Source: Prochloron sp. SulCav_FS08_3_32_3330
GTDB taxonomy: Bacteria > Cyanobacteriota > Cyanobacteriia > Cyanobacteriales > DYNF01
Assembly: GCA_020721205.1 (NCBI GenBank)
Contig: DYNF01000010.1
Span: 1-54,865 of the forward strand
Direction of reading: 5' to 3'
DNA length: 54,865 nucleotides
Shown here piece by piece: positions 6,915-54,865 of this stretch. The position numbers and the translations under genes were made by a program. The number at the start of each line of letters is the position of its first letter. The stretch's first letter is position 1. Under the pieces are notes generated by a model, which saw only the letters and a list, made by a program, of their open reading frames with translations, ran no database searches and was not told the origin of the DNA.

Positions 6915-7470
6915 AAGCAACAGCAACAGGTTGAAACCTGTTGGGGAAAAAAGGAGGGCGTTTTCATTTTCCTGAATGCAACGGGTTGAAACCCGTTGCT
7001 ACATAAGCAAAACCTGCTTACGCAGGTTGAATTTTTTTAATATTAGTTAATATTTAATCTTAAAACTCGTAAAGACGGGTTTTGTTTGGGTAGCAACAGG
7101 TTTTAACCTGTTGAAAAAAAAGAATGAAAACGCCCTGACTTTAATCTTAAAACCCGTAAAGACGGGTTTTGTTTGGGTAGCAACGGGTTTTAACCCGTTG
7201 AAAAAAAAAGAATGAAAACGCCCTGACTTTAATCTTAAAACCCGTAAAGACGGGTTTTGTTTGGGTAGCAACAGGTTTTAACCCGTTGAAAAAAAAGAAT
7301 GAAAACGCCCTGACAGGTAAGATGCCTGTTTCACGGTTGAATTTTTTTAATATTAGTTAATATTTAATCTTAAAACCCGTAAAGACGGGTTTTGTTTGGG
7401 TAGCAACGGGTTTTAACCCGTTGAAAAAAAAGAATGAAAACGCCCCGGGAAAAAAAGGAGGCTTTTTTAT
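6915..7470. repeat. Tandem/shuffled array of hairpin repeat modules from the same family as the MITE at 21-283 and the element at 30575-30736
   Basis: Repeated units of about 88 bp: cttaaaacccgtaaagacgggttttgtttgggtagcaacgggttttaacccgttgaaaaaaaagaatgaaaacgccctgactttaat occurs 4 times. Two copies of the dual-hairpin + T-tract module ...tacataagcaaaacctgcttacgcaggttgaatttttttaatattagttaatatttaatc are also present. It lies between the convergent GGDEF and map genes. Confidence 0.8.
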
Positions 7471-23756: not shown

Positions 23757-26700
23757 ATGAGTACATCTACCATTCTCGATCCAATTCTTGAAAATCCGAT
23801 TGAAGATTTATCTGATCCCATTCTCGAAAATGTGATCTCATATACATCTGATCCCATTCTCGAAGAAGCTTTACAAGACGTATCAGCAACATTAGCAGAA
23901 TTTGTCTATAGTGAGGATTTTCTCCCAACGATTGAAACTGTTTTCGGTAATAATTACGATACTGCTACCTTAGAAAACATCCGTCAACAGTGGGCAAACG
24001 GTGATTTTTCTAACCTACCTCAGATTGAGATTCTTTCAGGTAGCCAGTTACAGGGTGCGAATGCGGCTTATGCTGGTAAGACGAATACTATTTATTTTTC
24101 TTCTGATTTCTTAAGTCAATATGGTGATAATTCCCAAGCGTTAAAGAGTGTTTTAATTGAGGAAATTGGGCATTATGTGGATTATCAAATTAATACAGTT
24201 GATACCGTTGGCGATGAAGGGGAATATTTCTCTAATTTAGTGCGAGGGATTAAGTTGAGTGAGAGTCAAGTTCAGAGTTTAAAACAAGAAGATGACTCCA
24301 ATGTTATCAGTGTAAATAATCAGGATATCATGGTTGAACAATTTCTTCCTACAGGAACTTATACAGATGGACTTGATGGAGGGCGTTATGTTTTTCAAGC
24401 TGAAACAGCAGACTATATAGAAAAGTTTTTTGGAATACAGATCAATAACTCTTATCAGTACGATTCTGGAGACTCTTTAATTCTAAGAACACAATATTCT
24501 GGCGATGAGAAAACTTTTTTTGAAGGTGGTGGATTAACCGCAGGAATTAGTTACAATGGAGGCTCTTTTGGTGCAGGGTTTAAAGCCTATGCAGGTATAA
24601 ATTTAGGTGAAATAGATTTTGATCTGCCTTTACAAGCTCTTTTAACTGCAAGTAATTCAGGTAAAACACTTAACTTTGATTTTACAACTATTTTTGATGC
24701 CAAACTGGACTATACAATTCCTTCTGCCTATGCAGTTTTAGATTCAATTTTTGAGTATAATATTGGCTCACTGGATATATTTGCCAGTGCTGCAGGTGAA
24801 TCTATAGAAAGGACTATTTTTAATGGTGTGTCTGATACTTGGACACACAGAATGGTTAATATCAATACCTTAAATGATCCGATCGTACAAATAAATTTAT
24901 TACCCGGTCAAGTTAATTTTTTATCTTCTTCATTGAGTATTAATTCAGTCTCTTTATTAGGAGGTTTAGCAACTTTTAAAGCAAGTATTCTTCCCAATTT
25001 TAATTTTAGTATGGAAAACTCATCTACAGAGGATCAGTTTTCTATCAAGATTAGTAATCAAAGACCTCCTGATCCTGAAGATATTACTCCGGGTGATCCT
25101 AATCCTGATCCGGCTCTTCCAGATGAGTTAGCTCGTATAACCTTAAATTTTGATAAACTTCTTGATCTAGGTTTAACTGCTTTTGCAGGATTTCCATATC
25201 TTTCTGAAGATGTAACTGTTGGACCTTTCAGTGCAGGATATCGGTTACTACCAATAGAATTAACTGGTATAGCAAGTGCAATTTATGAACTTGAAGTTGG
25301 TATCAGAAATACTGAACCCAAAATAATTGAAGGTGAATTTTTAGATATTGCTACCTCATACACTGAGCTTGATGAATTACTTGCCAAAGATACAGATAAT
25401 GATTCAAAAATAGATGTCACATTTGAACTAAATCCAGATATTTTCTTGAAACCAAACTTGGCATTAGACTGGCAAACAGAGTTTAATGTAGATATCGGAA
25501 GACTTACTGCAAAAGTAGATTTTAACAAACTTCCATTTCCGTTAAATTCTATTCCATTTCTAAACAATATTAGTGGAAGTGTTAATCTTATTGATTTACC
25601 TGAAATTGTTATTGATGGATTAAGTTTTCGCATTGATATTCTTGATAAGCTAGGTATTCCTAAATCTGATTTAAGTATCTCTTTTAACGATCTATATGCA
25701 ATGTTTAATAATGGTCAAAAACCTGACTTTAACAAAGTTTCTGTTGAGATACCTTTTAATGCAATTTATCCAAATATAGGAACAGCCCAAGATGATGTGA
25801 TGAGCTTACCTGAATATTTTGGAGCAGAAAACCTTTATGGTGAAGCTGGTAATGACATTCTTTACGGTAATTCTTCTGCTAATCGAATTATGGGAGCAGA
25901 AGATAATGATACTATCTATGGTCGAGCAGGGAATGATCAACTTTACGGAGAATGGGGGAATGATCTTCTTTTAGGTGAACAAGGTAGTGACTATATTAAT
26001 GGTGGTACTGGTATAGACACCGTAAGCTATAGTAATTCAGCAAATGGTGTTATTGTCAATATTAATCAATCTCTTAATTATGGCAATCAAAAACTAACTA
26101 CATTTGATCTTGAACCAAATTTCTTTATTGGTGCTGGTCAAGCTTTAGACGGTTTTGGCAATGTTGATAGTTTGGCTAACCTTGAAAATATCATTGGTTC
26201 TGCTTATAACGATATTTTAATCGGCAATGCCTTAAATAATATTATTGAAGCCGGATCTGGAAATGATATTTTAATCAGTAGTGCTGGTAGTGATCAATTA
26301 TTGGGAAATAGCGGTATTGATACAGCAAGTTTCCGCCGTGATCCTAATGGTGTTTATGTCAGTCTTCAAGATAACATTGCAATAGATGGTTTTGGTTATA
26401 TTGATAATCTTTCCAGTATCGAAAATGTTGTTGGTTCTAATTTTGATGATGAAATATGGGGTAATAATGGGATCAACGTCATTCTCGGTGGTGCTGGAAG
26501 TGATCTTGTTTATGCTTTAGATGGAGATGATCTAGTTTATGGAGAAAGTGAAAACGATACCATCTTAGGTGGTTCTGGGAATGACTACATTGAAGGTAAT
26601 GATCAAGATGATCGCCTGTTTGGTAATACCGGAAATGATGTCATCTCAGGAGGTAATGATCAAGATTATATCGAAGGTAACGAAGGTGATGATCGCCTCT

Positions 26701-29700
26701 TTGGTAACTCTGGTTATGATACCATCTTAGGTGGCTCTGGTAACGATTATATCGAAGGTAATGGTGAAGATGACAACCTTTACGGAGAATCAGGCTATGA
26801 TACCATTTTAGGTGGTTCTGGTAATGATTACATCGAAGGTAACAGCGAAGATGATCTAATCTATGGTGAATCAGGTTTTGATATCATCAAAGGTGGTACA
26901 GGCTATGACACTATTTATGGTGGTTCAGAAAATGATTATATCGAAGGGAATGAACAGGATGATCGTATTTTTGGTGAAACTGGAAATGATACCATCTTAG
27001 GTGGTAATGATAATGACTACATTGAAGGTAACGATCAAGATGATAAACTTTATGGTAATACCGGAAACGATATTATCTTAGGTGGCAATGATCAAGATTA
27101 CATTGAAGGTAACGAAGGTGATGATCGTCTTTACGGTAACTCTGGTTATGACACCATTTACGGTAACTCAGACAATGATTATATCGAAGGTAACGATCAG
27201 GATGACAAACTTTATGGTAATACCGGAAATGATGTGATCTTAGGTGGCAAAGATCAAGATTACATTGAAGGTAACGAAAATGATGATCGTCTCTTTGGTA
27301 ACAGTGGCAACGATCTCATCTATGGTAACGATGGCAACGATTATATCGAAGGAAATCAAGGTGATGACCTAATTTACGGTGATAATCCCTTTAATCCGGG
27401 TGTTGATACCCCACCAACCGACAATACCAACCATCAAGATACTATCTTTGGTAACGATGGTAATGACCAGATTCACGGTGGAGAAGATAAAGATATCATC
27501 TCAGGTGGTATTGGTAATGACCTCATCTATGGTGACTTCAAAGACGATCTCTTTGCAGGTACAGGAGATGTCATTGACGGTAACGAAGGAGATGACACTA
27601 TCTTTGGTGGTGGTGGCGAAGATACCATACATGGAAACGATGATAACGACACCATCCGAGGTGAAGGCGGGAATGATCTAATCTTTGGTGATGCCGGAGA
27701 TGACTATATTACCGGAGGTGATGGTGATGATACCATTTACGGTGGTACAGGCAATGACCTCATTTTTGGTGATAGCGGTGTTGGTAATGACCTCATTTAC
27801 GGTAATGAAGGTGATGATACTTTACATGGGCGTGTTGGTAACGATCGCATTTACGGCAATGAAGATAATGACTTAATTTTTGGTGAAGAAGGAGAAGACT
27901 ATATCGAAGGTAACACAGGTAATGATACTATTTCCGGTGGTGATGGTAACGATCACATCTTAGGAAATGAAGGTACAGACCTCATTCACGGTGATGCCGG
28001 AGATGATAATATTACTGGTAATGAAGAAAATGATACCATTTTTGGTGATACTGGTAATGACTACATTGAAGGTAACGATGGTAATGACCTAATCTCAGGC
28101 GGTGCTGATAATGATACCATTTCGGGTAATATCGGTGATGACTTCATTTATGGTGATAGCGGACAAGACACTATTCACGGTAACGAAGGCAATGACCTGA
28201 TCAGTGGTGGTACAGACAACGATATTATTTATGGTGATACCGGAAGCGATCGCATTCAAGGAGATGACGGCGATGATAATATCTATGGTGGTGCTGATAA
28301 TGATATTATTTCGGGTAACAACGGTGCTGATAATATCTATGGTGAAACCGGAAACGACCTAATACATGGAAACGATGGTGATGACTACCTCAGTGGTGGT
28401 GATGGTACTGATCTCATCTATGGTGACAATGGTAACGATAACATGGACGGTGATCTAGGGGAAGATCAACTCTTTGGTGGTGAAGGTAACGATACCATGC
28501 GTGGTGGTGATGATAACGACTCCCTCTATGGCGAAAATGGTGCTGATATTATGGAAGGTAATAACGGTAATGATAGCCTCGCTGGTGGAGCAGGTAACGA
28601 TATCATGAGTGGCGGTACCGGAGATGACTTTATCAATGGTCAAACTGGTAACGATATCATGTATGGTGATGATGGTAACGATACCATGTATGGAGAAGAA
28701 GGTGATGACAAGCTCTATGCAGGAAATGGAGATGATTACCTCGTAGGAGGTGCAGGTGGTGACTTATTAGATGGTGGTGCAGGTAAAGACTTAATTTCTT
28801 ACTACACATCCAAGGGCGGTGTTACTGTACAATTAAGCTCTGGTCATAATAAAGGTGGCGACGCTCAAGGTGATAATATTACAGGAGTAGAAAACCTTGA
28901 AGGTTCATATTATGATGACTGGCTCATTGGAGATAATGGCAAAAACACCATTATCGGACTTTCCGGTAACGATCGCCTTGATGGAAAAGCAGGTCATGAT
29001 ACCCTATTCGGAGGCTTAGGTAACGACTCTTTAGAAGGTCGTCAAGGAAATGATATCTTAATGGGTGATCAAGGTAATGATTATCTCGACGGTGGCTCAG
29101 GTAATGACTGGCTTTCCGGCGGTTTAGGAGATGATCAACTTTACGGAGGGCGATCGGGTGATGATATCCTTTCTGGTGGCGATGGTAACGACTACATAGA
29201 CGCTAGTTCAGGTGTAGACCTCATTTTCGGTGGTAATGGTAATGATACCATTGATGCAGGTTCTCATAACGATACCGTTTATGGTGGAGCAGGAAACGAT
29301 ATTATTGACGGTGGTACGGGTAGTGATATCCTTTTTGGTAACGAAGGCAATGACACTATTTATGGAGGAATGGATGATAACCTCTTATATGGTGGTCAAG
29401 GTGACGATTTACTCTATGGTGGCACAGGTAAAAGTGTTGATACCTTTGCGATCGCCCTAGCGGAAGGGATTGATACTCTCTTTAACTTCCAAGTGGGTAC
29501 GGATCGGATCGGATTAGTAGGTGATTTTACTGCTAATGATATTCTGATTAACTCAGGTCAAGGAAAGAATAAAGACGTTACCCTCACCTATAAATCTACG
29601 GGAAATACCCTCGCTATTTTGAAAGATGTGCAACTCAATAAAAATCAAACTCTGAATTTTATTGCCCTCAGTTTACCTACGATAGCAGTGGATCCTCTTG

Positions 29701-29822
29701 GTAGTGTAACTCAACCTGTACCTCCTCCAGTTTTAGGTGGTAGTGATATTTTTCCGGGTATAGTTGAACCAGCAAAACCGATTGATTCTATTCCTAGTTT
29801 TAATGAGGTAACTCTTGTTTAA
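23757..29822 (+). CDS. Giant RTX-type calcium-binding beta-roll protein (hemolysin-type nonapeptide repeats); probable type I secreted surface/S-layer or adhesin-like protein
   Basis: 2021 aa. About 650-aa non-repeat N-terminal region, then more than 100 GGxGxDxUx nonapeptides (GNDGNDYIEGNDQDDRLFGNTGNDVISGG...). DNA units at 26560-27360 are nearly identical 57-nt repeats. C-terminal about 130 aa is non-repeat (possible T1SS signal). No T1SS ABC/MFP genes are in the window. Confidence 0.8.
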   Translation: MSTSTILDPILENPIEDLSDPILENVISYTSDPILEEALQDVSATLAEFVYSEDFLPTIETVFGNNYDTATLENIRQQWANGDFSNLPQIEILSGSQLQGANAAYAGKTNTIYFSSDFLSQYGDNSQALKSVLIEEIGHYVDYQINTVDTVGDEGEYFSNLVRGIKLSESQVQSLKQEDDSNVISVNNQDIMVEQFLPTGTYTDGLDGGRYVFQAETADYIEKFFGIQINNSYQYDSGDSLILRTQYSGDEKTFFEGGGLTAGISYNGGSFGAGFKAYAGINLGEIDFDLPLQALLTASNSGKTLNFDFTTIFDAKLDYTIPSAYAVLDSIFEYNIGSLDIFASAAGESIERTIFNGVSDTWTHRMVNINTLNDPIVQINLLPGQVNFLSSSLSINSVSLLGGLATFKASILPNFNFSMENSSTEDQFSIKISNQRPPDPEDITPGDPNPDPALPDELARITLNFDKLLDLGLTAFAGFPYLSEDVTVGPFSAGYRLLPIELTGIASAIYELEVGIRNTEPKIIEGEFLDIATSYTELDELLAKDTDNDSKIDVTFELNPDIFLKPNLALDWQTEFNVDIGRLTAKVDFNKLPFPLNSIPFLNNISGSVNLIDLPEIVIDGLSFRIDILDKLGIPKSDLSISFNDLYAMFNNGQKPDFNKVSVEIPFNAIYPNIGTAQDDVMSLPEYFGAENLYGEAGNDILYGNSSANRIMGAEDNDTIYGRAGNDQLYGEWGNDLLLGEQGSDYINGGTGIDTVSYSNSANGVIVNINQSLNYGNQKLTTFDLEPNFFIGAGQALDGFGNVDSLANLENIIGSAYNDILIGNALNNIIEAGSGNDILISSAGSDQLLGNSGIDTASFRRDPNGVYVSLQDNIAIDGFGYIDNLSSIENVVGSNFDDEIWGNNGINVILGGAGSDLVYALDGDDLVYGESENDTILGGSGNDYIEGNDQDDRLFGNTGNDVISGGNDQDYIEGNEGDDRLFGNSGYDTILGGSGNDYIEGNGEDDNLYGESGYDTILGGSGNDYIEGNSEDDLIYGESGFDIIKGGTGYDTIYGGSENDYIEGNEQDDRIFGETGNDTILGGNDNDYIEGNDQDDKLYGNTGNDIILGGNDQDYIEGNEGDDRLYGNSGYDTIYGNSDNDYIEGNDQDDKLYGNTGNDVILGGKDQDYIEGNENDDRLFGNSGNDLIYGNDGNDYIEGNQGDDLIYGDNPFNPGVDTPPTDNTNHQDTIFGNDGNDQIHGGEDKDIISGGIGNDLIYGDFKDDLFAGTGDVIDGNEGDDTIFGGGGEDTIHGNDDNDTIRGEGGNDLIFGDAGDDYITGGDGDDTIYGGTGNDLIFGDSGVGNDLIYGNEGDDTLHGRVGNDRIYGNEDNDLIFGEEGEDYIEGNTGNDTISGGDGNDHILGNEGTDLIHGDAGDDNITGNEENDTIFGDTGNDYIEGNDGNDLISGGADNDTISGNIGDDFIYGDSGQDTIHGNEGNDLISGGTDNDIIYGDTGSDRIQGDDGDDNIYGGADNDIISGNNGADNIYGETGNDLIHGNDGDDYLSGGDGTDLIYGDNGNDNMDGDLGEDQLFGGEGNDTMRGGDDNDSLYGENGADIMEGNNGNDSLAGGAGNDIMSGGTGDDFINGQTGNDIMYGDDGNDTMYGEEGDDKLYAGNGDDYLVGGAGGDLLDGGAGKDLISYYTSKGGVTVQLSSGHNKGGDAQGDNITGVENLEGSYYDDWLIGDNGKNTIIGLSGNDRLDGKAGHDTLFGGLGNDSLEGRQGNDILMGDQGNDYLDGGSGNDWLSGGLGDDQLYGGRSGDDILSGGDGNDYIDASSGVDLIFGGNGNDTIDAGSHNDTVYGGAGNDIIDGGTGSDILFGNEGNDTIYGGMDDNLLYGGQGDDLLYGGTGKSVDTFAIALAEGIDTLFNFQVGTDRIGLVGDFTANDILINSGQGKNKDVTLTYKSTGNTLAILKDVQLNKNQTLNFIALSLPTIAVDPLGSVTQPVPPPVLGGSDIFPGIVEPAKPIDSIPSFNEVTLV

Positions 29823-30835: not shown

Positions 30836-31885
30836 ATGATCGCTACAACTCAAAAACAATTACCCATTCCGGCTTTTTTTGATCCTCGTAAAGTTCAAGA
30901 AGTCTGGCGAGTTCCCTACCAACAACGGGCGCAAGATGCTCAAAATTGGGCTAAACAATATAAAATTAAACCCGCCGCTAGTGATAAAACTCGCATTTGT
31001 TTAATGATTATTGATGTACAAAATACTTTTTGTATTCCTGATTTTGAGTTGTTTGTCGGAGGACGCTCAGGTATGGGGGCAATAGATGATAATATTCGTT
31101 TATGTGAGTTTATTTATCATAATTTAAGTGTAATTACGGAAATTGCTCCCACAATGGACACTCACACTACGATGCAAATTTTCCATCCTTTATTTTGGGT
31201 AAATGAGGCGGGAGAAAATCCTCAACCCCATACCATGATTAGTTTAGAGGATATTCAAAAAGGAATCTGGAAAGTTAATCCTGCGATCGCCTATAGTGTG
31301 GCAAAAGGTAATTATATTGGTTTACAACAACACGCCTTACATTATACCAAAAAACTGAGTGATAACGGTAAATATTTATTAACTATTTGGCCCTATCATG
31401 CTATGTTAGGAGGGATTGGACACAGTTTAGTTTCAGCCGTTGAGGAGGCTACTTTTATTCACAATGTGGCACGTCGTAGTCAAACTAATTTTGAAATAAA
31501 AGGGGGAAATCCTCTCACGGAAAATTATTCAGTTTTGCGTCCAGAAGTGTTAGAAGGGGCAAGTGGGCATCCGATCGCTCAGAAAAATACTCGTTTTATT
31601 CAACGATTATTAGAATTTGATGGCGTAATTATTGCTGGACAAGCGAAAAGTCATTGTGTAGCATGGACTATTGATGATTTACTCACGGAAATTATGGCGG
31701 TGGATCCGGCTTTAGCTCAGAAAGTTTATTTATTAGAGGATTGTACTTCCCCCGTCGTTGTCCCCGGAATTATTGATTTTACCGATCAGGCAAATGAGAG
31801 TTTTCAGCGTTTTGCTGGGGCGGGTATGCACCTTGTGAAATCTACAACGGCGATCGCTGATTTTCCAGATTTAGACCTAAAATAA
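30836..31885 (+). CDS. Isochorismatase-family cysteine hydrolase (nicotinamidase-like) with a large internal insertion
   Basis: 349 aa. Signature is [13 protein letters not shown] (IDxQNDF-like Asp) and the catalytic Cys context is [19 protein letters not shown]. About 130 extra residues between the signature regions relative to about 200-aa family members. Confidence 0.5.
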
Positions 31886-32138
31886 CATTTTTTGGTTCGT
31901 TGTTGTGCTTTAGCACCACTTATTTTCGCGCTGAAGCGCAACAACAAACCTTTTTTGGTTCGTTGTTGTGCTTTAGCACCACTTAAAGCGCTCAAGCACA
32001 ACAACAAACCTATTTTCGCGCTAAAGCGCAACAACAAACATTTTTTGGTTCGTTGTTGTGCTTTAGCACCACTTAAAGCGCTCAAGCACAACAACAAACC
32101 TATTTTCGCGCTGAAGCGCAACAACAAACCTTTAAAAT
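31886..32138. repeat. Tandem array (about 5 units) of the palindromic GTTGTTGTGCTTTAGCAC repeat family
   Basis: ttttttggttcgttgttgtgctttagcaccacttaaagcgctcaagcacaacaacaaacc tattttcgcgctgaagcgcaacaacaaacc ... Full palindromes and half-sites alternate. Track ORFs 31804-32127(-) and 31892-32230(+) are artefacts of this array. Confidence 0.8.
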
Positions 32139-33718: not shown

Positions 33719-35854
33719 ATGAATATTAAACAAAAATACATCTTACTGATCAGTATTCATGGTTTAATTCGAGGTCAAAAACTAGAATTAGGTCGAGATG
33801 CCGATACAGGCGGTCAAACTAAATACGTTTTAGAGTTAGCTCAATCCCTCTCAAAACGTCCTGAAGTGGCAAGGGTTGATCTGATGACTAAATTAATTAT
33901 AGACCCCCAAGTTAGTGAGGATTATAGCAAAACCCATGAAAAGCTAAATAAAAAAGCGAATATTATTCGTGTTTCTTGCGGTATTGATGACTATATACCT
34001 AAAGAAGAATTATGGAATTATTTAGATAATTTTGCTGATAATGCTCTTAATTATCTAAAACTTCAGAAAAAAATGCCCGATGTAATTCATACCCATTATG
34101 CCGATGCAGGATATGTAGGAACGAGGTTATCTCATCAGTTAGAAATCCCTTTAATCCATACAGGACACTCTTTAGGGCGTAGTAAACGCAAAAGACTTTT
34201 GGCAAGTGGAGTCAAAAGGGAACTAATCGAAAAACGCTATAACATGACTCGTCGCATTAATGCGGAAGAAGATACCCTCAGTTCAGCCGAAAGGGTTATT
34301 ACTAGCACTAATCAGGAAATAAATGAGCAATATGCTCAATATGATTATTATGACCCTCAGCAAATGCAAGTAATTCCTCCCGGCACTGATGTGGAAAAAT
34401 TCTATCCTCCCGAAGGAAATGAATGGGAAAGTAATGCGTTTAAAATCATTGCTAAGTTTTTAAAAAAGCCAAAAAAACCGATGATTTTAGCGATTTCCCG
34501 TTTAGATCAAAGGAAGAATATTGAGATGTTAATTGAGGCTTTTGGTCAATCTTCACAGTTACAGGAAAAGGCAAATTTAGTTATTTTTGCCGGAACAAGA
34601 AATGACGCAAGGGATTTAGAAAATAGCGCTCAAGACATATTTAAGGATTTATTATTGGCGATTGATCGTTATGATTTATATGGCAAAGTTGCCTATCCGA
34701 AAATGATTGGGTCTGAAAGTATTGGCGTTGTGTATCGTTTGGGGGCGATATCGAGGGGGGTATTCGTGAATCCGGCTTTAACAGAGCCTTTTGGCTTAAC
34801 TTTGATTGAAGCGGCGGCTAGTGGTTTACCCATTGTCTCGACGAAAGATGGTGGTCCTGTAGATATCATTAAAAACTGTCAAAATGGTTATTTAATTGAT
34901 CCCCTTGACCCTCAAGATATTGCTGATCAGATTTTAAAAGTTTTAACAGACTCTGAAATATGGCAGATGTTAGCTCAGAATGGAATCAAGAAAGTTAAAG
35001 AGTTTTATACTTGGGATTCCCATGTAGACAGTTATATGGAGATGTTAGAACCGATCATTGATCAGGCTCAAAGGTTGCCCCGCATGGCTTTAAAACGTCG
35101 TTCTATGATGTATCATCGTGGAGCAATTGTTTCTAGTATTGATCAAAATTTACTCGGTGATTCTGAATCATTACAAGAATTAATGAGTATTTTAACGGAA
35201 AAACGGAATAATATTAGTTTTTGTATTGCGACGGGAAGACGTTTAGATGGGGCTTTAAAGATATTACGTCAATATAATATCCCCCAACCTGATACTCTGA
35301 TTACCAGTATGGGAACGGAAATTTATTATGCACCCGATCTAACTAAAGATGAGGCTTGGACGAACCATATTAATTATTTATGGAATCGGCAAAGAGTGGC
35401 TTCTTTATTAATAGAATTACCCGGACTAAAATTACAACCAAAAGATAAACAAAGTCTCTATAAAATCAGTTATTTTTATGATCCAATGATCGCTCCCACT
35501 GTGGAAGAAATTAAACGGATTTTGCATCAAAATGAACAAACTGTTAATGTGATCTTTTCCTTTGGTCAATTCTTAGATATTGTCCCCATCAGGGCTTCAA
35601 AAGGTTATGCTGTGCGGTGGTTTGCCCAACAAAGAGATATTCCTTTAGATCATATTCTCACGGCGGGAGGCTCTGGTGGTGATGAGGATATGATGTTAGG
35701 AAATACTTTATCTATCGTGGTGGCAAATCGTCATCAAGAGGAACTTTCTAATATTTCTAAGATTGAGCCGATTTATTTTTCCCAAAAACAATTTGCGGCG
35801 GGGATTATTGACGGGTTTAATCATTATGATTTCTTTAATCTTTGTGGATATTAG
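33719..35854 (+). CDS. sps: Sucrose-phosphate synthase (GT4 glycosyltransferase domain + C-terminal SPP-like HAD domain)
   Basis: 711 aa. N-terminal LISIHGLIRGQKLELGRDADTGGQTKYVLELA is typical of SPS/SuSy. C-terminal about 250 aa is HAD-like. It sits in a sucrose cluster with spp and a fructokinase. Confidence 0.8.
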   Translation: MNIKQKYILLISIHGLIRGQKLELGRDADTGGQTKYVLELAQSLSKRPEVARVDLMTKLIIDPQVSEDYSKTHEKLNKKANIIRVSCGIDDYIPKEELWNYLDNFADNALNYLKLQKKMPDVIHTHYADAGYVGTRLSHQLEIPLIHTGHSLGRSKRKRLLASGVKRELIEKRYNMTRRINAEEDTLSSAERVITSTNQEINEQYAQYDYYDPQQMQVIPPGTDVEKFYPPEGNEWESNAFKIIAKFLKKPKKPMILAISRLDQRKNIEMLIEAFGQSSQLQEKANLVIFAGTRNDARDLENSAQDIFKDLLLAIDRYDLYGKVAYPKMIGSESIGVVYRLGAISRGVFVNPALTEPFGLTLIEAAASGLPIVSTKDGGPVDIIKNCQNGYLIDPLDPQDIADQILKVLTDSEIWQMLAQNGIKKVKEFYTWDSHVDSYMEMLEPIIDQAQRLPRMALKRRSMMYHRGAIVSSIDQNLLGDSESLQELMSILTEKRNNISFCIATGRRLDGALKILRQYNIPQPDTLITSMGTEIYYAPDLTKDEAWTNHINYLWNRQRVASLLIELPGLKLQPKDKQSLYKISYFYDPMIAPTVEEIKRILHQNEQTVNVIFSFGQFLDIVPIRASKGYAVRWFAQQRDIPLDHILTAGGSGGDEDMMLGNTLSIVVANRHQEELSNISKIEPIYFSQKQFAAGIIDGFNHYDFFNLCGY

Positions 35855-35867
35855 TTATTAGTTATCT

Positions 35868-36104
35868 TTCAATCTTTAAGTTTGTTGTTGCGCTTCAGCG
35901 CTCAATCTTTAAGTTTGTTGTTGCGCTTCAGCGCTCAATCTTTAAGTTTGTTGTTGCGCTTCAGCGCTCAAAATTATAGGGCTAAAGCACTCAATCTTTA
36001 AGTTTGTTGTTGCGCTTCAGCGCTCAATATTATAGGGCTTCAGCGCTCAATATTATAGCGCTAAAGCAGTTTTAATTATAGCGCTGAAGCGCAACAACGA
36101 ACCT
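35868..36104. repeat. Tandem array of palindromic-repeat half-sites and full units (GCGCTGAAGCGCAACAAC variant) between sps and spp
   Basis: tcaatctttaagtttgttgttgcgcttcagcgc occurs 3 times at 34-bp period, then variant units, ending agcgctgaagcgcaacaacgaacc. Confidence 0.8.
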
Positions 36105-38873: not shown

Positions 38874-39299
38874 TTAAACTTCGTAAGGTGCTTTACCAGA
38901 AAATTTTACAGTTGCAGGTTCAGGATTTTGTCCGATCCGTCTGTCAACTTTACCAGCGAAGGCGCGACCTTCATTTACTTTTTCAGGGAACACGCCATCA
39001 GCCGGATGCAGATAGGTGGTTTCACCACTAGCACAAATCCGATAGATTTTGTAATCTTGGATTTTGGGTTTGAAAGTAGTGCGAAACTGTGTTCCAAGAG
39101 CGAGACATTGCTCTTTACGAGCGAAATAAATAAGGTTTTCACCTTGATTCATGGTTGCTGCGCCACCTGTAGGTAGTTCAAAAACTTGCTCTTTAGAACT
39201 TGTCCAAGTGATCGCATATTTTTCTTCCCGTTCAGCCGCAGATAGTAAACCACCTGTGCTACCGCCGAACTGAGGAGTTTTTCCAGTAAGCTCCGTCAT
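38874..39299 (-). CDS. psaD: Photosystem I reaction centre subunit II
   Basis: [32 protein letters not shown]...[21 protein letters not shown] matches PsaD. True start is taken at the internal Met (track ORF starts 19 codons earlier at 39356). Confidence 0.85.
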
Positions 39300-39442
39300 A
39301 AATTTTAAGTCCCAGTTTGTTTGAGTTTTCAAAAGGTATTTAACGAATGTTATCACTTTGTTTAGATTGATCTACATATTTCGTCAAGAAATGTAACAAT
39401 TTGTTATTAGTTATTGGTTTTTGGTTTTTGGTTCTTGGTTAT

Positions 39443-39484
39443 TCACTGTTCACTGTTCACTGTTCACTGTTCACTGTTCACTGA
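39443..39484. repeat. STRR heptamer array (TTCACTG)x6 overlapping the dusA stop codon
   Basis: ttcactgttcactgttcactgttcactgttcactgttcactg. Read on the minus strand it is CAGTGAA repeats encoding ...VNSEQ stop of dusA. Confidence 0.8.
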
Positions 39485-40432
39485 TAGAAGGGCATTTTTA
39501 ATCACTTGAGAGTCAGCACCCATAAGATGAGCGTTTTCACTAATAAATCTTTTCCATGCTTTAGTACCCGGCTCACCTGCAAATATTTGCAATAAATGAC
39601 GACTGATAGAATGTAATTTTAAGCCTTTACTTATCCACTCATCAATATAAGGGTACATTTTTTCGATAATTTCAACACGAGTTAAAGGTGTAACATCCTT
39701 GTGATAAATGTCTCGATCTACTGTGGCAAATAAATAAGGATTATCATAAGCGGCTCTACCGATCATTACTCCGTCTACAAATTTTAAATGCTGTTTAATT
39801 TCTTCTATTTTTGTAATACCTCCATTTATTTCGATCAATAAATGAGGAAAATCCTCTTTTAAACGATACACATCCTCGTAACGTAAGGGGGGGATTTCTC
39901 TATTTTCCTTTGGGCTTAAACCTTTTAACCATGCTTTGCGCGCATGAATGGTAAAACGCTCACATCCGGCTTCTGAGACAATCCTGATAAAATTCACTAA
40001 ATCCTCATAACGATCCAGATCATCAATTCCGATGCGATTTTTAACCGTAACGGGAATTGTAACAGCTTTTTGCATGGCGTTAACAGCGATCGCCACTTTT
40101 TCAGGAGTTGCCATTAAACAAGCGCCAAAACTGCCATTTTGCACCCGATCGCTAGGACATCCCACATTGAGATTAATTTCATCATAACCCCAATCTTGGG
40201 CAATTTTGGCACAAAAAGCTAAATTTTGAGGATTATCACCCCCTAGTTGTAAAGAAAGAGGTTTTTCTTCAAAAGAAAAATCTAATAATTTCGGGCGATC
40301 GCCATAAATAATGGCTGGAGTTGTGATCATTTCCGTATAAAGGAGAGTACACTGGGTAATTTGACGCAGAAAATAACGAAAATGACGATCAGTGCGATCC
40401 ATCATTGGTGCTAAACTTAAAGGATTAAACAT
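39464..40432 (-). CDS. dusA: tRNA-dihydrouridine synthase A
   Basis: 322 aa starting MFNPLSLAPMMDRTDRHFRYFLRQI. FMN-binding TIM-barrel motifs are present, including the catalytic Cys context LNVGCPS. Confidence 0.85.
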   Translation of the reverse strand: MFNPLSLAPMMDRTDRHFRYFLRQITQCTLLYTEMITTPAIIYGDRPKLLDFSFEEKPLSLQLGGDNPQNLAFCAKIAQDWGYDEINLNVGCPSDRVQNGSFGACLMATPEKVAIAVNAMQKAVTIPVTVKNRIGIDDLDRYEDLVNFIRIVSEAGCERFTIHARKAWLKGLSPKENREIPPLRYEDVYRLKEDFPHLLIEINGGITKIEEIKQHLKFVDGVMIGRAAYDNPYLFATVDRDIYHKDVTPLTRVEIIEKMYPYIDEWISKGLKLHSISRHLLQIFAGEPGTKAWKRFISENAHLMGADSQVIKNALLSVNSEQ

Positions 40433-40435
40433 AGT

Positions 40436-40545
40436 GGATAGTGGATAGTTGATAGTTGATAGTTGATAGTTGATAGTTGATAGTGGATAGTGGATAGTGG
40501 ATAGTGGATAGTTGATAGTGGATAGTTGATAGTTGATTTAATATT
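40436..40545. repeat. STRR heptamer array (GTGGATA/GTTGATA, about 15 units) abutting the dusA start codon
   Basis: gtggatagtggatagttgatagttgatagttgatagttgatagtggatag... The repeats end 3 bp from the dusA ATG (minus strand). Confidence 0.8.
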
Positions 40546-40560
40546 AATATTAATAAAAAT

Positions 40561-40647
40561 GGAGTGTGAGCGTCTCGCTCACTAGATTTGAGCATAAGTG
40601 AGCGAGACGCTAGATTTGAGCATAAGTGAGCGAGACGCTCACACTCC
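40561..40647. other. Nested perfect palindrome (22-bp outer stem, 43-nt loop containing a direct repeat)
   Basis: ggagtgtgagcgtctcgctcac-tagatttgagcataa-gtgagcgagacgc-tagatttgagcataa-gtgagcgagacgctcacactcc. The track ORF 40425-40649(-) is an artefact of these repeats. Confidence 0.6.
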
Positions 40648-40755
40648 AAAATTTGCCCAACCTATTTAGGATTACTATATTTGACAGTTGACAACTATTA
40701 ACTATCCACTGTCAACTGTCAACTAACTGATTATTGTCTCAAACAATCATAAAAA

Positions 40756-48300: not shown

Positions 48301-48434
48301 GTAAATCATGGCAAAGTGAGTATAACTTTTTCTCAGATCCTAGTCATTTAAACCGTTATGGTGCTTATAAAGTATCCCAAGAATTAGCAGTAGATCCAGT
48401 AATTAATTGGGGGAGTTTAAACAGTGAACAGTGA
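45363..48434 (+). CDS. Large membrane-anchored protein: cytoplasmic N-terminal region with about 5 repeated modules, one TM helix, C-terminal SGNH/AlgJ-DltD-like O-acyltransferase domain
   Basis: 1023 aa. Repeats of pattern GIRIQLRQKQDLLHIL / KISIRGELKQKTLHLFC / KIRLQVRLRGNHLHLLC. TM is VATVWGVLGILLTFQMDWLF near residue 560. SGNH block I is IMIIGSSRAMRGID and block V is FSDPSHLNRYG (DxxH). The C-terminus ...NSEQ stop is encoded by CAGTGAA heptamer repeats. Confidence 0.6.
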   Translation: MLKESQRPSLTPTSNSPTLKKWVIQGVQKAVGESQKIRLQVRLRGNHLHLLCETSQETQPQQILRYLIAGIKKSFKLNPDNFSLFTDNFSHPIYQIVVYGKVFGRKKHDWVKTIHIHSSEHSQDTEHSSEFETIGGAIISYETLAKSGSPEAIARYLSHQFSYLGVSIRVKREKLPIKEQLEEAKYRLKVICECNYSPEPTLLAEPITQELRKLELQGFREGIILAQVTGEYEPDWTLKIDLTHPDLMLKEWANWGDPESIIRLLNDRFKSQKISIRGELKQKTLHLFCSHSSEESPDQKNTVTELTNYLDALSPQGIEAVSIYGIRPVKNQPIFIDPDLQQEKPVWIDWHKLPASYSEELRKTPLELAQEDNLDALNFLINRALNQDLDWRLNTGGIRIQLRQKQDLLHILAEAVVCPAQSQVLPSLEKLFRHLTITGVGGIRIYGRRSGQLNSLWHENIDFIKRKSSNHELLPEFTSLYYLEIDPSFLEDDLPLTETQVQPLFTRKTQNTHFKQLIHRLQWLLGKSGLFISNTHNTFSAPSFSVDQSQLAAYKGLKVATVWGVLGILLTFQMDWLFGRMVSPSLQGENSEVIVNQATAETPPHNITLPEISLQKSEWKGTDSSENSSFTQIGSKEIISEVEARDNQRSQQSVTEILTTYKAKNPKFNNPFLEEKLALYQHRIEEEGVADIMIIGSSRAMRGIDPYALQMALKEQGYPDLNIFNFGVNGATAKIVDLILRQLLTSEELPKIVIFADGARAFNSGRSDITYQMIEKSEGYKQLLAGIFPPAKENNSNISANSNLIKPTFSQQYKAVDQWLNESISQFSSAYNERDQLKTKARDQFVNLFQFINILNQKENPNIKQNKNEEIVTPNGIDYDGFFPLSIKFNPDTYYQDHPLVMGAYDSDYQNFNLEGEQEESLVTLINYLQEKNVQFVFINQPLTDNYLDTTRLKYEKQFNSYMQNLSEKYPLVFRDFVNRKSWQSEYNFFSDPSHLNRYGAYKVSQELAVDPVINWGSLNSEQ

Positions 48435-48472
48435 ACAGTTATTTCTTTATAATAATAGATAGGAGTGTTAAA

Positions 48473-48889
48473 TTGGCTAAAGATTTAGTTCATCAATCCG
48501 CAAAAAATGCGTTAATTAAAGATAATTGGATTATAACTCATGATCCTTATAAAATAACTTTTGGAGGAGTAAATATGGCTGTTGATCTAGGAGCGGATAA
48601 ATTAATTGGCGCAACTAAAAATAAACAAAAAATTGCTGTTGAAATTAAAAGTTTTTTAGAACAATCTTCAGCTATTTCTCAATTTCATACAGCTTTAGGT
48701 CAATTTATTAATTATCGTACTGTTATTAATAAAAAAGAACCAGAAAGAATTTTATATTTAGCGATACCAGATTTCAGTTATAATAGTTTTTTTACCTTAG
48801 AGTTTACTCAATTAATGGTTCACGAAAATAACTTAAAATTAATAGTTTTTGATCCTGAAAAAGAGGTAATTATTCAATGGATAAATTAA
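48473..48889 (+). CDS. xisH: XisH-family protein
   Basis: TTG start after RBS ataggagtg. LAKDLVHQSAKNALIKDNWIITHDPYKITFGGVNMAVDLGADKLIGATKNKQKIAVEIKSF matches the XisH family. The track ORF begins earlier at an in-frame ATG that overlaps the upstream gene. Confidence 0.7.
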   Translation: MAKDLVHQSAKNALIKDNWIITHDPYKITFGGVNMAVDLGADKLIGATKNKQKIAVEIKSFLEQSSAISQFHTALGQFINYRTVINKKEPERILYLAIPDFSYNSFFTLEFTQLMVHENNLKLIVFDPEKEVIIQWIN

Positions 48890-49212
48890 ATAAATATAGT
48901 AAAATAGTTCAAGATATTCTATCAGAATATACTCAAGATAATCTGTCTACAGATAATATCGAAACTCAAGTAATTTTTGATACATTAAGATGTCATTATC
49001 AAGTAGTTACTTTAGGCTGGGAAGGTCAAAAATGGGTGCATTATTGTCTGATTCATATTGATATTAAATCTCAAAAAATTTGGATTCAATGGAATATGAC
49101 AGAAAAAGATATTGCTCAAGATTTAGTTAATTTAGGTGTACCAAAACAGGATATTGTCATTGGTTTTCATCCGCCTTTTATGCGTAAATTAACAGAATAT
49201 GCGATCGGATAA
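48877..49212 (+). CDS. xisI: XisI-family protein
   Basis: 111 aa starting MDKLNKYSKIVQDILSEY... It overlaps xisH by 13 bp. The XisH-XisI pair is the classic arrangement. Confidence 0.75.
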   Translation: MDKLNKYSKIVQDILSEYTQDNLSTDNIETQVIFDTLRCHYQVVTLGWEGQKWVHYCLIHIDIKSQKIWIQWNMTEKDIAQDLVNLGVPKQDIVIGFHPPFMRKLTEYAIG

Positions 49213-54638: not shown

Positions 54639-54865
54639 AGTTTGTTGTTGTGCTTTAGCACCACTTAAATTATTAAAAAACTTTTTGATTTTATAAAGGA
54701 TTTTTTTTCTTAATTTATTAGTGCTGAAGCACAACAACGAACCTTTTTTTGTGCTGAAGCACAACAACGAACCTTTTTTTGTGCTGAAGCACAACAACGA
54801 ACCTTTTTTCGTGCTGAAGCACAACAACGAACCTTTTTTCGTGCTGAAGCACAACAACGAACCTT
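54639..54865. repeat. Palindromic repeat unit followed by at least 5 tandem copies of one arm (GTGCTGAAGCACAACAACGAACC + T7), running off the window end
   Basis: aagtttgttgttgtgctttagcaccac...; then (gtgctgaagcacaacaacgaacc ttttttt) 5 times with exact 30-bp period. The track ORF 54579-54857(-) is an artefact. Confidence 0.8.

Follow-up and report, generated by a model that had tools for sequence, protein, structure and literature searches.

Two genes of different families end inside copies of one heptanucleotide, CAGTGAA, in a 54,865-nt stretch of DNA from Prochloron sp. SulCav_FS08_3_32_3330 (contig DYNF01000010.1, positions 1 to 54,865 of the forward strand), which was analysed at its full length and is called the window below (G+C content 32.9%). 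The first gene is dusA, coding for tRNA-dihydrouridine synthase A, and the second encodes an SGNH-like protein of the DUF1574 family; the two are unrelated (PF01207, Dus, versus PF07611, DUF1574). According to a sequence-only reading of the window, the repeat supplies the stop codon and the same NSEQ tail to both genes, which is confirmed by the arrays, the ends of the open reading frames (ORFs) and the Pfam domains. The features are listed in Table 1. Both arrays are present where that reading had placed them, with positions shifted by 1–4 nt (39443-39484 had been given for the array at dusA).

The minus-strand dusA gene ends ctt cta tCA GTG AAC AGT GAA CAG TGA, followed by three further units, and the C-terminus of its product is ...VIKNALLSVNSEQ, with NALLSVNSEQ preceding the stop. 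The ORF takes in 20 of the 42 array bases (the first 20 nt, about three of the six units), which code for (S)VNSEQ and the stop codon, and the remaining three CAGTGAA units sit past the stop, in the dusA–psaD spacer, where the array ends 142 nt from the ATG of psaD. The statement that the tail is encoded entirely by the array had to be corrected, since leucine is encoded by cta (not tta), a codon outside the array. Column conservation in DusA extends up to ...NAL, and the LSVNSEQ tail is lineage-specific. The valine at the third position after NAL is 70% conserved and is kept in the window as the GTG of the first unit.

The DUF1574 protein ends ...INWGSLNSEQ, encoded by agt tta AAC AGT GAA CAG TGA ACAGT on the plus strand. 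It is conserved up to ...INW, and the GSLNSEQ tail is lineage-specific. The array ends 33 nt before the start of xisH. The xisH/xisI pair (48473-49212) stands right after this array and before an MBOAT gene, and is missing at the corresponding position in the relatives L134, L006 and L007; xisH and xisI are present in the window together with psaD. Similar phylogenetic distributions were described for XisH/XisI and heptamer repeats (MacGregor 2015, PMC4679880).

Table 1. Repeat arrays and associated genes in the window (TRF, Tandem Repeats Finder).
Feature	Position	Strand	Basis
(CAGTGAA)×6 heptanucleotide array, perfect	39442..39483	(-)	TRF TTCACTG ×6.0, 100% identity; exact period-7 run agrees
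dusA (tRNA-dihydrouridine synthase A), 322 aa	39464..40432	(-)	ORF, Pfam PF01207 (Dus), homologues
dusA TGA stop, in third repeat unit	39464..39466	(-)	ORF list, codon layout, simulation
DUF1574 (SGNH-like) gene, 1023 aa	45363..48434	(+)	ORF, Pfam PF07611
(AACAGTG)×2.9 array, encodes NSEQ and TGA (48432-48434)	48420..48439	(+)	TRF, 100% identity
AACCAAG/A/T heptamer array (AACCAAN ×6.4), directly 3' of CAGTGAA array	39399..39443	(-)	TRF
psaD, downstream of dusA	38874..39299	(-)	gene calls on L001
(CAACTAT/CCACTAT)×15 array	40431..40537	(-)	TRF ATAGTTG/ATAGTGG ×15.3
28-nt direct repeat ×2.1 with GTGAGCGAGACGCTCAC hairpins, in dusA–ebsA spacer	40566..40660	.	TRF; terminator-like match
Degenerate heptamer array (CAACTAT/ACTGTCA type) ×4.9	40692..40725	.	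TRF; exact run 40708-40724
(TATTAGT)×2.4 short array	35849..35865	(+)	TRF, exact run, ORF end, frame table

The 14-mer CAGTGAACAGTGAA has six overlapping matches in the window at one mismatch or fewer, all at the dusA and DUF1574 loci; 0.03 matches are expected after shuffling, and six were reached in none of 100 shuffles. Contig L001, a second assembly of the same organism from a Joint Genome Institute (JGI) metagenome, carries both arrays in identical form. It differs from the window at three positions in 20,969 nt, none of them within repeats. The RNA of the CAGTGAA array is unstructured (fold of -7.2 kcal/mol, z = +0.65), no promoter- or terminator-like site was found at the CAGTGAA arrays in the promoter/terminator scan, and an intrinsic terminator was rejected on these two grounds. 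A gathering-threshold scan of the whole window against Rfam gave 0 matches.

The common tail follows from the reading frames of the unit. CAGTGAA repeats are translated as Q-stop-TVNSE, SEQ-stop-TVN or VNSEQ-stop-T; because the length of the unit is not divisible by three and a TGA lies within it, each frame meets a stop every 21 nt. The reverse strand (TTCACTG) reads FTVHCSL in every frame and is stop-free. An ORF entering an array that reads CAGTGAA meets a stop within 3, 10 or 17 nt and acquires Q, (x)SEQ or (x)VNSEQ as its end. The tails are identical in the two genes because at least 12 array bases precede the TGA in both. The shared NSEQ tail, which the sequence-only reading had taken to be imposed on two genes by the repeat, is indeed the same in both; it is arithmetic, involves no extra coincidence and needs no special explanation.

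The effect of copy number was simulated by rebuilding both genes with 0–9 units at dusA and 0–6 units at DUF1574. The DusA protein is unchanged at every n of three or more units, and the DUF1574 protein at every n of two or more full units. Two units give dusA the tail ..VNSE; one unit gives the DUF1574 protein the tail ..NSEQLFLYNNR, and its array-free version is fused in frame to xisH. A change of array length above two to three units is silent in the protein because the three-frame stop insulates it. It had been proposed that copy-number change in non-multiples of three would alter the C-terminus; only contraction to fewer than three (dusA) or fewer than two (DUF1574) units does so. The arrays resemble phase-variable contingency loci in that a slippage-prone tandem repeat, with a unit that is not a multiple of three, lies over coding sequence. 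They differ from such loci in that copy number switches neither the gene nor the tail: the stop falls within the first 20 nt at n of three or more, and there is no on/off logic. A phase-variation switch was rejected on the constancy of the tails in the simulation.

The 3' end of dusA was compared with that at nine related loci, where DusA is 75–98% identical (the nearest named homologues, from Gloeothece, Xenococcaceae and Crocosphaera, have about 76–77% identity; tails are given below up to the stop codon). At the closest locus, L002 (98%), the site is flanked exactly as in the window, by ...AAAAATGCCCTT on the upstream and AATAACCAAGAACC... on the downstream side. What lies between is CTAT(CAGTGAA)6 T in the window, with the tail LSVNSEQ, and GAGACTGTAGAGACG TAA TATATTACGTCTCTACAGTC in L002, a perfect 36-nt palindrome, with the tail ETVET and without a CAGTGAA array. 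In L002 (1700-1740, corresponding to 39442-39490 of the window) the TAA of dusA is central in the palindrome GACTGTAGAGACGTAATATATTACGTCTCTACAGTC, the left arm of which codes for ETVET. Its predicted fold is very stable (-27.6 kcal/mol, z = -9.5), and it may be the native tail duplicated in inverted form, or else a small element of the palindromic kind.

Three loci with 83% identical DusA (L003, L135 and L136, clustering at ≥90% identity) have either (GTGGGAA/GTGAGAA)n at this site or no array, and the tails ETVGSEK, ETVGSEKWEVGSGK and ETVGSDQ. The LSV... start of the tail in the window is the derived state, since the tails of this clade also start with ETV. Their tails vary together with the different heptamer, GTGRGAA, of which only the GTGAGAA variant contains a stop. 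At L136, which has no array, TAA directly adjoins a conserved block upstream of psaD (AATAACAAATTGTTACATTTCTTGAC..., seen in five strains) that limits the variable spacer, and L135 also carries a TGACCAA heptamer. More distant loci have different tails and no array: L137 (82%) as well as L138 and L139 (78%, one protein, P0007; the DNA was read at L138 only). At the most distant ones, L004 and L005 (75%), (ACAGTGA)3 and about eight degenerate units follow a different junction and the tail is ..LVPLTVNSEQ, a state reached independently of the window; in L004 an (ATTACTT)6 array comes next. The contigs L003 and L005 terminate inside arrays. The AACCAAN array next to the CAGTGAA array has one unit more in the window than in L002. 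The segment from ..NAL to the block upstream of psaD is a hypervariable heptamer hot spot, and the DusA tail turns over with it.

Among 120 DusA homologues, the VNSEQ end is present only in the repeat-bearing lineage (P0033 and the truncated P0017 and P0024). The suggestion that the tail is derived from the repeat and is not conserved is upheld by this check of orthologues, with NSEQ in a single distant DusA lineage (75%) that carries the same array. A metagenome scan for copy-number variants with a 21-mer from the dusA 3' end returned only L002 and a chance match (L132).

At the DUF1574 gene, the cluster mate P0241 (92% identical) ends ...INWGSLKSVNSN with the tail KSVNSN. Its DNA has three mismatches to the window in 85 aligned bases up to ..AGTTTAAA, after which it continues as GT CAGTTAA CAGCAAC TAA AATCCGGTGAC, versus CAGTGAA CAGTGAA CAG in the window; the homology picks up again at TT.T.TCTTTATAAT. 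The window array stands in place of 33 nt of degenerate proto-heptamers in this relative (L134). A 74% relative has aaa ACAGTTA at.. and the tail KTVNQK, a 72% relative the tail MGDQ, and another one VIDNEK. An NSEQ end was not found in any DUF1574 orthologue compared, and a homologue search using the C-terminal 160 aa of the protein gave two weak matches only. Judged from the 92% and 74% relatives, the ancestral tail appears to have held the unit-like ACAGTTA-ACAG already. Capture of gene ends by an expanding repeat, as had been proposed, fits dusA; the DUF1574 array looks as if it were born in place from the ACAGTTA-ACAG tail codons. By these alignments, both tails are repeat-derived, recent and not conserved.

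In the window the unit is confined to these two loci; elsewhere it was found on at least 55 cyanobacterial contigs. A scan for (CAGTGAA)3 in one genome per species gave at least 120 loci, and the counts given below refer to the matches listed. About 55 of these are cyanobacterial, mostly from Nostocales, with others from Halothece, Microcystis, Chamaesiphon, Allocoleopsis, Microcoleus and Limnoraphis. When units with up to two mismatches were merged, 60 cyanobacterial arrays of three or more units were obtained, some genomes supplying several. The stop of a co-oriented open frame (≥100 codons) lies inside 16 of them, four further arrays begin ≤7 nt from a co-oriented stop, and only five are located 8–100 nt downstream of one. 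A single array of the 60 is ≤10 nt from a downstream start, and 40 lie away from gene ends. The tails of nine exact cases are NWQ, KSVNSEQ, NSYQ, KISEQ, ANQ, VTSEQ, ENSEQ, TTVNSEQ (queA of Scytonema tolypothrichoides) and SLSQ; eight of these genes have Pfam domains (CHAT, kinase, DUF2064, AAA_35, Fer2_2, Wzy_C, QueA and Phytase-like), and in four the array starts precisely at CAG TGA. In loci of Nostoc, Brasilonema and Scytonema (L076, L078 and L101) a TAACTGA/TGATAAC array comes immediately after a CAGTGAA array, which makes composite heptamer blocks.

CAGTGAA is best regarded as a repeat of the short tandemly repeated repetitive (STRR) type that overwrites the 3' ends of genes, the matching tails being a by-product of a change that is most likely neutral; the probability of this reading is estimated at about 80%. 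Replication slippage, or replacement of local sequence, would give rise to arrays and alter their length where DNA is under weak constraint, as it is in the unconserved last codons of genes. Their birth could often be seeded by unit-like tail codons, such as ACAGTG (in relatives of DusA) or ACAGTTA (in those of DUF1574). A co-oriented gene whose 3' end comes to be covered by an array loses its native stop, and the ORF is closed again within six codons, the new tail always being a suffix of ...VNSEQ.

In dusA, the ancestral tail starting with ETV, its stop and the sequence following it were replaced by CTAT(CAGTGAA)6. In the DUF1574 gene, unit-like ancestral tail codons (..TCAGTTAACAGC..) appear to have been converted into 2.9 perfect units with a frame change of 2 nt, which the three-frame stop absorbed. 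Such arrays would be tolerated where only unconstrained tail codons are overwritten, since a new stop closes the ORF immediately; were the array inverted, all of it would join the protein, a change that would presumably be purged. Both tails lie past the last conserved residue, so their change is most likely neutral, and the tail NSEQ is a by-product without a function.

The other explanations differ in what they make of the tail and of the position of the arrays. It is highly improbable that the arrays are assembly errors, or that the short DUF1574 array resembles the unit by chance: repeats often break assemblies, as in the contigs L003 and L005, and this array is just 20 nt long, but two assemblies are equal base for base at both arrays, six matches stand against a shuffle expectation of 0.03, and CAGTGAA is located at gene ends in many independent genomes. 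Equally improbable is NSEQ as an ancestral selected C-terminal motif (e.g., a sorting or degradation signal) with the DNA repeat as a secondary feature. The DusA of a cyanobacterium of the Epithemia-symbiont type (P0042) ends ..KISEQ (protein only), and the 70% conserved valine after NAL is kept in the window, both of which would suit such a motif. However, VNSEQ in the 120 DusA homologues is limited to the lineage with the same repeat, the nearest relatives of both genes end differently and the tail columns are unconserved; on this comparison of orthologues the motif was rejected. Several observations do weigh against overwriting by a neutral repeat. Among arrays within 100 nt of a stop, 20 of 25 on the co-oriented side lie at the stop or ≤7 nt from it, versus one of 14 beside convergent genes, for which the array is in the open orientation (Fisher p = 2e-5; the next nearest convergent array is 23 nt away), and random birth followed by purifying selection does not obviously predict this scarcity abutting convergent stops. 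Four of the approximately six heptamer loci in the window cluster around dusA. The direction of change at the DUF1574 gene is suggested by two outgroups only, and both slippage as the mechanism and neutrality are what we infer. The asymmetry is weaker when exact runs only are counted (14:12 versus 2:12), and for other heptamers in the same loci the near:mid ratios of 16:29 in the stop-bearing and 7:19 in the stop-free orientation do not differ significantly (p = 0.6). The placement asymmetry is claimed for CAGTGAA alone, as an observation and not as a law.

This asymmetry is shared ground for two accounts in which the generation or retention of arrays of the CAGTGAA type is favoured on the coding strand, precisely at stops, through a strand-specific process or through a function (a stop pad or a protein-binding platform in the 3' untranslated region (UTR)). 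Preference of either kind is considered unlikely; if it were real, these arrays would systematically drive the turnover of C-terminal tails throughout the lineage in cyanobacteria. It is doubtful that arrays are preferentially made in the sense orientation at gene 3' ends by a strand-specific process and not merely tolerated there. The candidates are slippage that is coupled to transcription or to translation, and seeding from contexts found at tails and stops (..ACAGTG.. or CAG TGA, for example). The asymmetric placement is in line with this account, as are the starts of both window arrays at native-like ACAGTG or ACAGTTA tail codons, present in relatives too, and the four of nine exact cases beginning at CAG TGA. 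The sample is small and limited to the matches listed, with several arrays from one genome, 40 of the 60 arrays lie away from gene ends, no mechanism of this kind is known to us, and the asymmetry could stem from selection against read-through in the open orientation together with protected terminators. A functional cis-element, by which arrays are kept at gene ends for what the repeat RNA or DNA does, is distinctly unlikely. As a platform, such an element could bind a single-strand-binding protein (S1, Csp or Csr-like); as a three-frame stop pad, it could clear ribosomes ahead of the following gene (psaD, xisH); or it could modulate translational coupling or the stability of the transcript. 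It would agree with the greater frequency of coding-strand arrays at or ≤7 nt from a stop than beside convergent genes, with the same placement bias of G-rich heptamers, which are mostly transcribed (PMC4692102), and with the regulatory role proposed for TAACTGA repeats (PMC4679880) and STRRs (PMC2670836), although a regulatory effect was shown by neither published study of such heptamers (PMC4679880, PMC4692102). Moreover, the presence, unit and copy number of the array vary at one site among strains 83–98% identical, and L002, L136, L137 and L138 do without any array. The array RNA is unstructured, with no Rfam family and no terminator-like site, and other heptamers in the same loci show no significant difference between stop-bearing and stop-free orientations.

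An STRR-type repeat overwriting gene ends has counterparts among known systems. STRRs are 7-bp tandem repeats of cyanobacteria, the function of which is unknown (PMC2670836). CAGTGAA arrays are like them in consisting of head-to-tail 7-nt units in a cyanobacterial host, in being mostly intergenic, and in their hypervariable presence and copy number between related strains, seven related dusA 3' loci from other lineages having different arrays or none. The difference lies in the host, which is not heterocystous but of a unicellular or pleurocapsalean type, low-GC (33%) and Chroococcales/Pleurocapsales-like, with two CAGTGAA loci in 55 kb. The classical units, described by Mazel and co-workers in 1990, are reportedly CCCCAGT, TTGGTCA and CAACAGT; literature searches for the canonical unit sequences returned unrelated primer lists only. 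Rotated to GAACAGT, the window unit is one nucleotide away from CAACAGT, which we take to be such a unit, and is not canonical itself; the TGACCAA of L135 is the exact reverse complement of TTGGTCA, presumably another one. Small palindromic elements or elements resembling miniature inverted-repeat transposable elements (REP, Correia and RPE types) also overlap gene ends. At the same site L002 has its 36-nt palindrome containing the dusA stop, and therefore repeats of more than one kind supply the stop there. The window array differs from such elements: its units repeat directly in tandem, and it lacks both an inverted repeat and a hairpin.

The same phenomenon was documented previously for other heptamers (PMC4679880, PMC4692102). 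TAACTGA direct repeats occur in marine Beggiatoaceae, cyanobacteria and Bacteroidetes; in the forward orientation they have stops in all three frames, in reverse they are open, 13 sets overlap an upstream stop codon, and the residues encoded by them are found only at protein termini, outside domains (MacGregor 2015, PMC4679880). CAGTGAA likewise makes a three-frame stop in one direction, is open in the other, and overlaps the stop of a co-oriented upstream gene. It differs in its position at or on stops and rarely near starts, whereas TAACTGA is mostly located a few nucleotides upstream of starts. G-rich heptameric simple sequence repeats, GGGAATC in Xanthomonas and GGGGA(T/C)T in Nostoc PCC 7120, vary widely in length and sequence among close relatives, for which polymerase slippage was proposed (Rehm et al. 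2015, PMC4692102). Heptamers adjoining or overlapping stop codons were described in that study as well; those repeats are G-rich and form quadruplexes, whereas CAGTGAA is not G-rich and is unstructured.

No new mechanism is required by the CAGTGAA arrays, since the behaviour is known for TAACTGA and G-rich heptamers; what is added here is direct evidence of tail replacement from orthologues, a different unit and a non-heterocystous host. A microsatellite-like repeat can rewrite the final residues of housekeeping proteins, most likely without harm, as it supplies a stop in every frame, and the strain-to-strain turnover of the dusA–psaD spacer shows such rewriting in progress. For annotation, cyanobacterial tails such as ..VNSEQ, ..SEQ and ..VGSEK are probably to be treated as repeat artefacts of evolution and not as motifs, and contigs often break there.

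The 5' side of dusA is also rich in repeats. The sequence-only reading had noted a heptamer array abutting the dusA start codon, and this array is there (ATAGTTG/ATAGTGG in Table 1). It overlaps the AT of the dusA ATG, has no stop in any frame when read in the direction of dusA and is absent from L002; promoter-like matches inside it are periodic consensus matches and were not used as evidence. The divergent ebsA–dusA spacer is about 320 nt long in the window (40433-40755) versus 64 nt in L002 (690-753). The extra DNA, about 260 nt, consists entirely of repeats: the 15 heptamers, three copies of TTAATA, two copies of the 28-nt hairpin repeat and the second, degenerate heptamer array. The promoter and 5' UTR of dusA must differ between the window strain and L002.

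Arrays of three or more CAGTGAA units are listed for about 65 non-cyanobacterial contigs as well (L012-L131), from Acidobacteriota, Bacteroidota, Chloroflexota, Desulfobacterota, Verrucomicrobiota and others. The open strand of the non-cyanobacterial arrays listed falls within an open frame of ≥100 codons in 28 of 71. At L035 and L111 an array in the open orientation (TTCACTG) stops one or two codons short of a long gene's ATG, an arrangement that mirrors the (CCACTAT)n array abutting the dusA start codon. Long antisense ORFs running through arrays were not accepted as a separate class, being either arrays just upstream of the start of the antisense gene or spurious ORFs made by the repeat.

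The short TATTAGT array is a weaker, third instance of a repeat-supplied stop: its first unit carries the TAG of a 711-aa sucrose-phosphate-synthase-like ORF (33719-35854). This ORF is split into genes of 654 and 59 aa in the JGI contig by one extra G, a 1-nt indel at 35680. Tandem units of 30–33 nt, built around small hairpins (GCGCTTCAGCGC or GTGCTGAAGCAC) together with AACAACAAACC, are present at 31884-32133, 35869-36062 and 54714-54865; the first of these arrays starts inside the stop codon of a 349-aa ORF (30836-31885). An 88-nt unit is repeated 3.0 times with 96% identity between genes at 7053-7314. Long coding repeats of 27, 81 and 162 nt fill part of a 2021-aa ORF (23757-29822), with a GDDTILGGSGNDYIEGN-like pattern of the RTX/haemolysin calcium-binding type.

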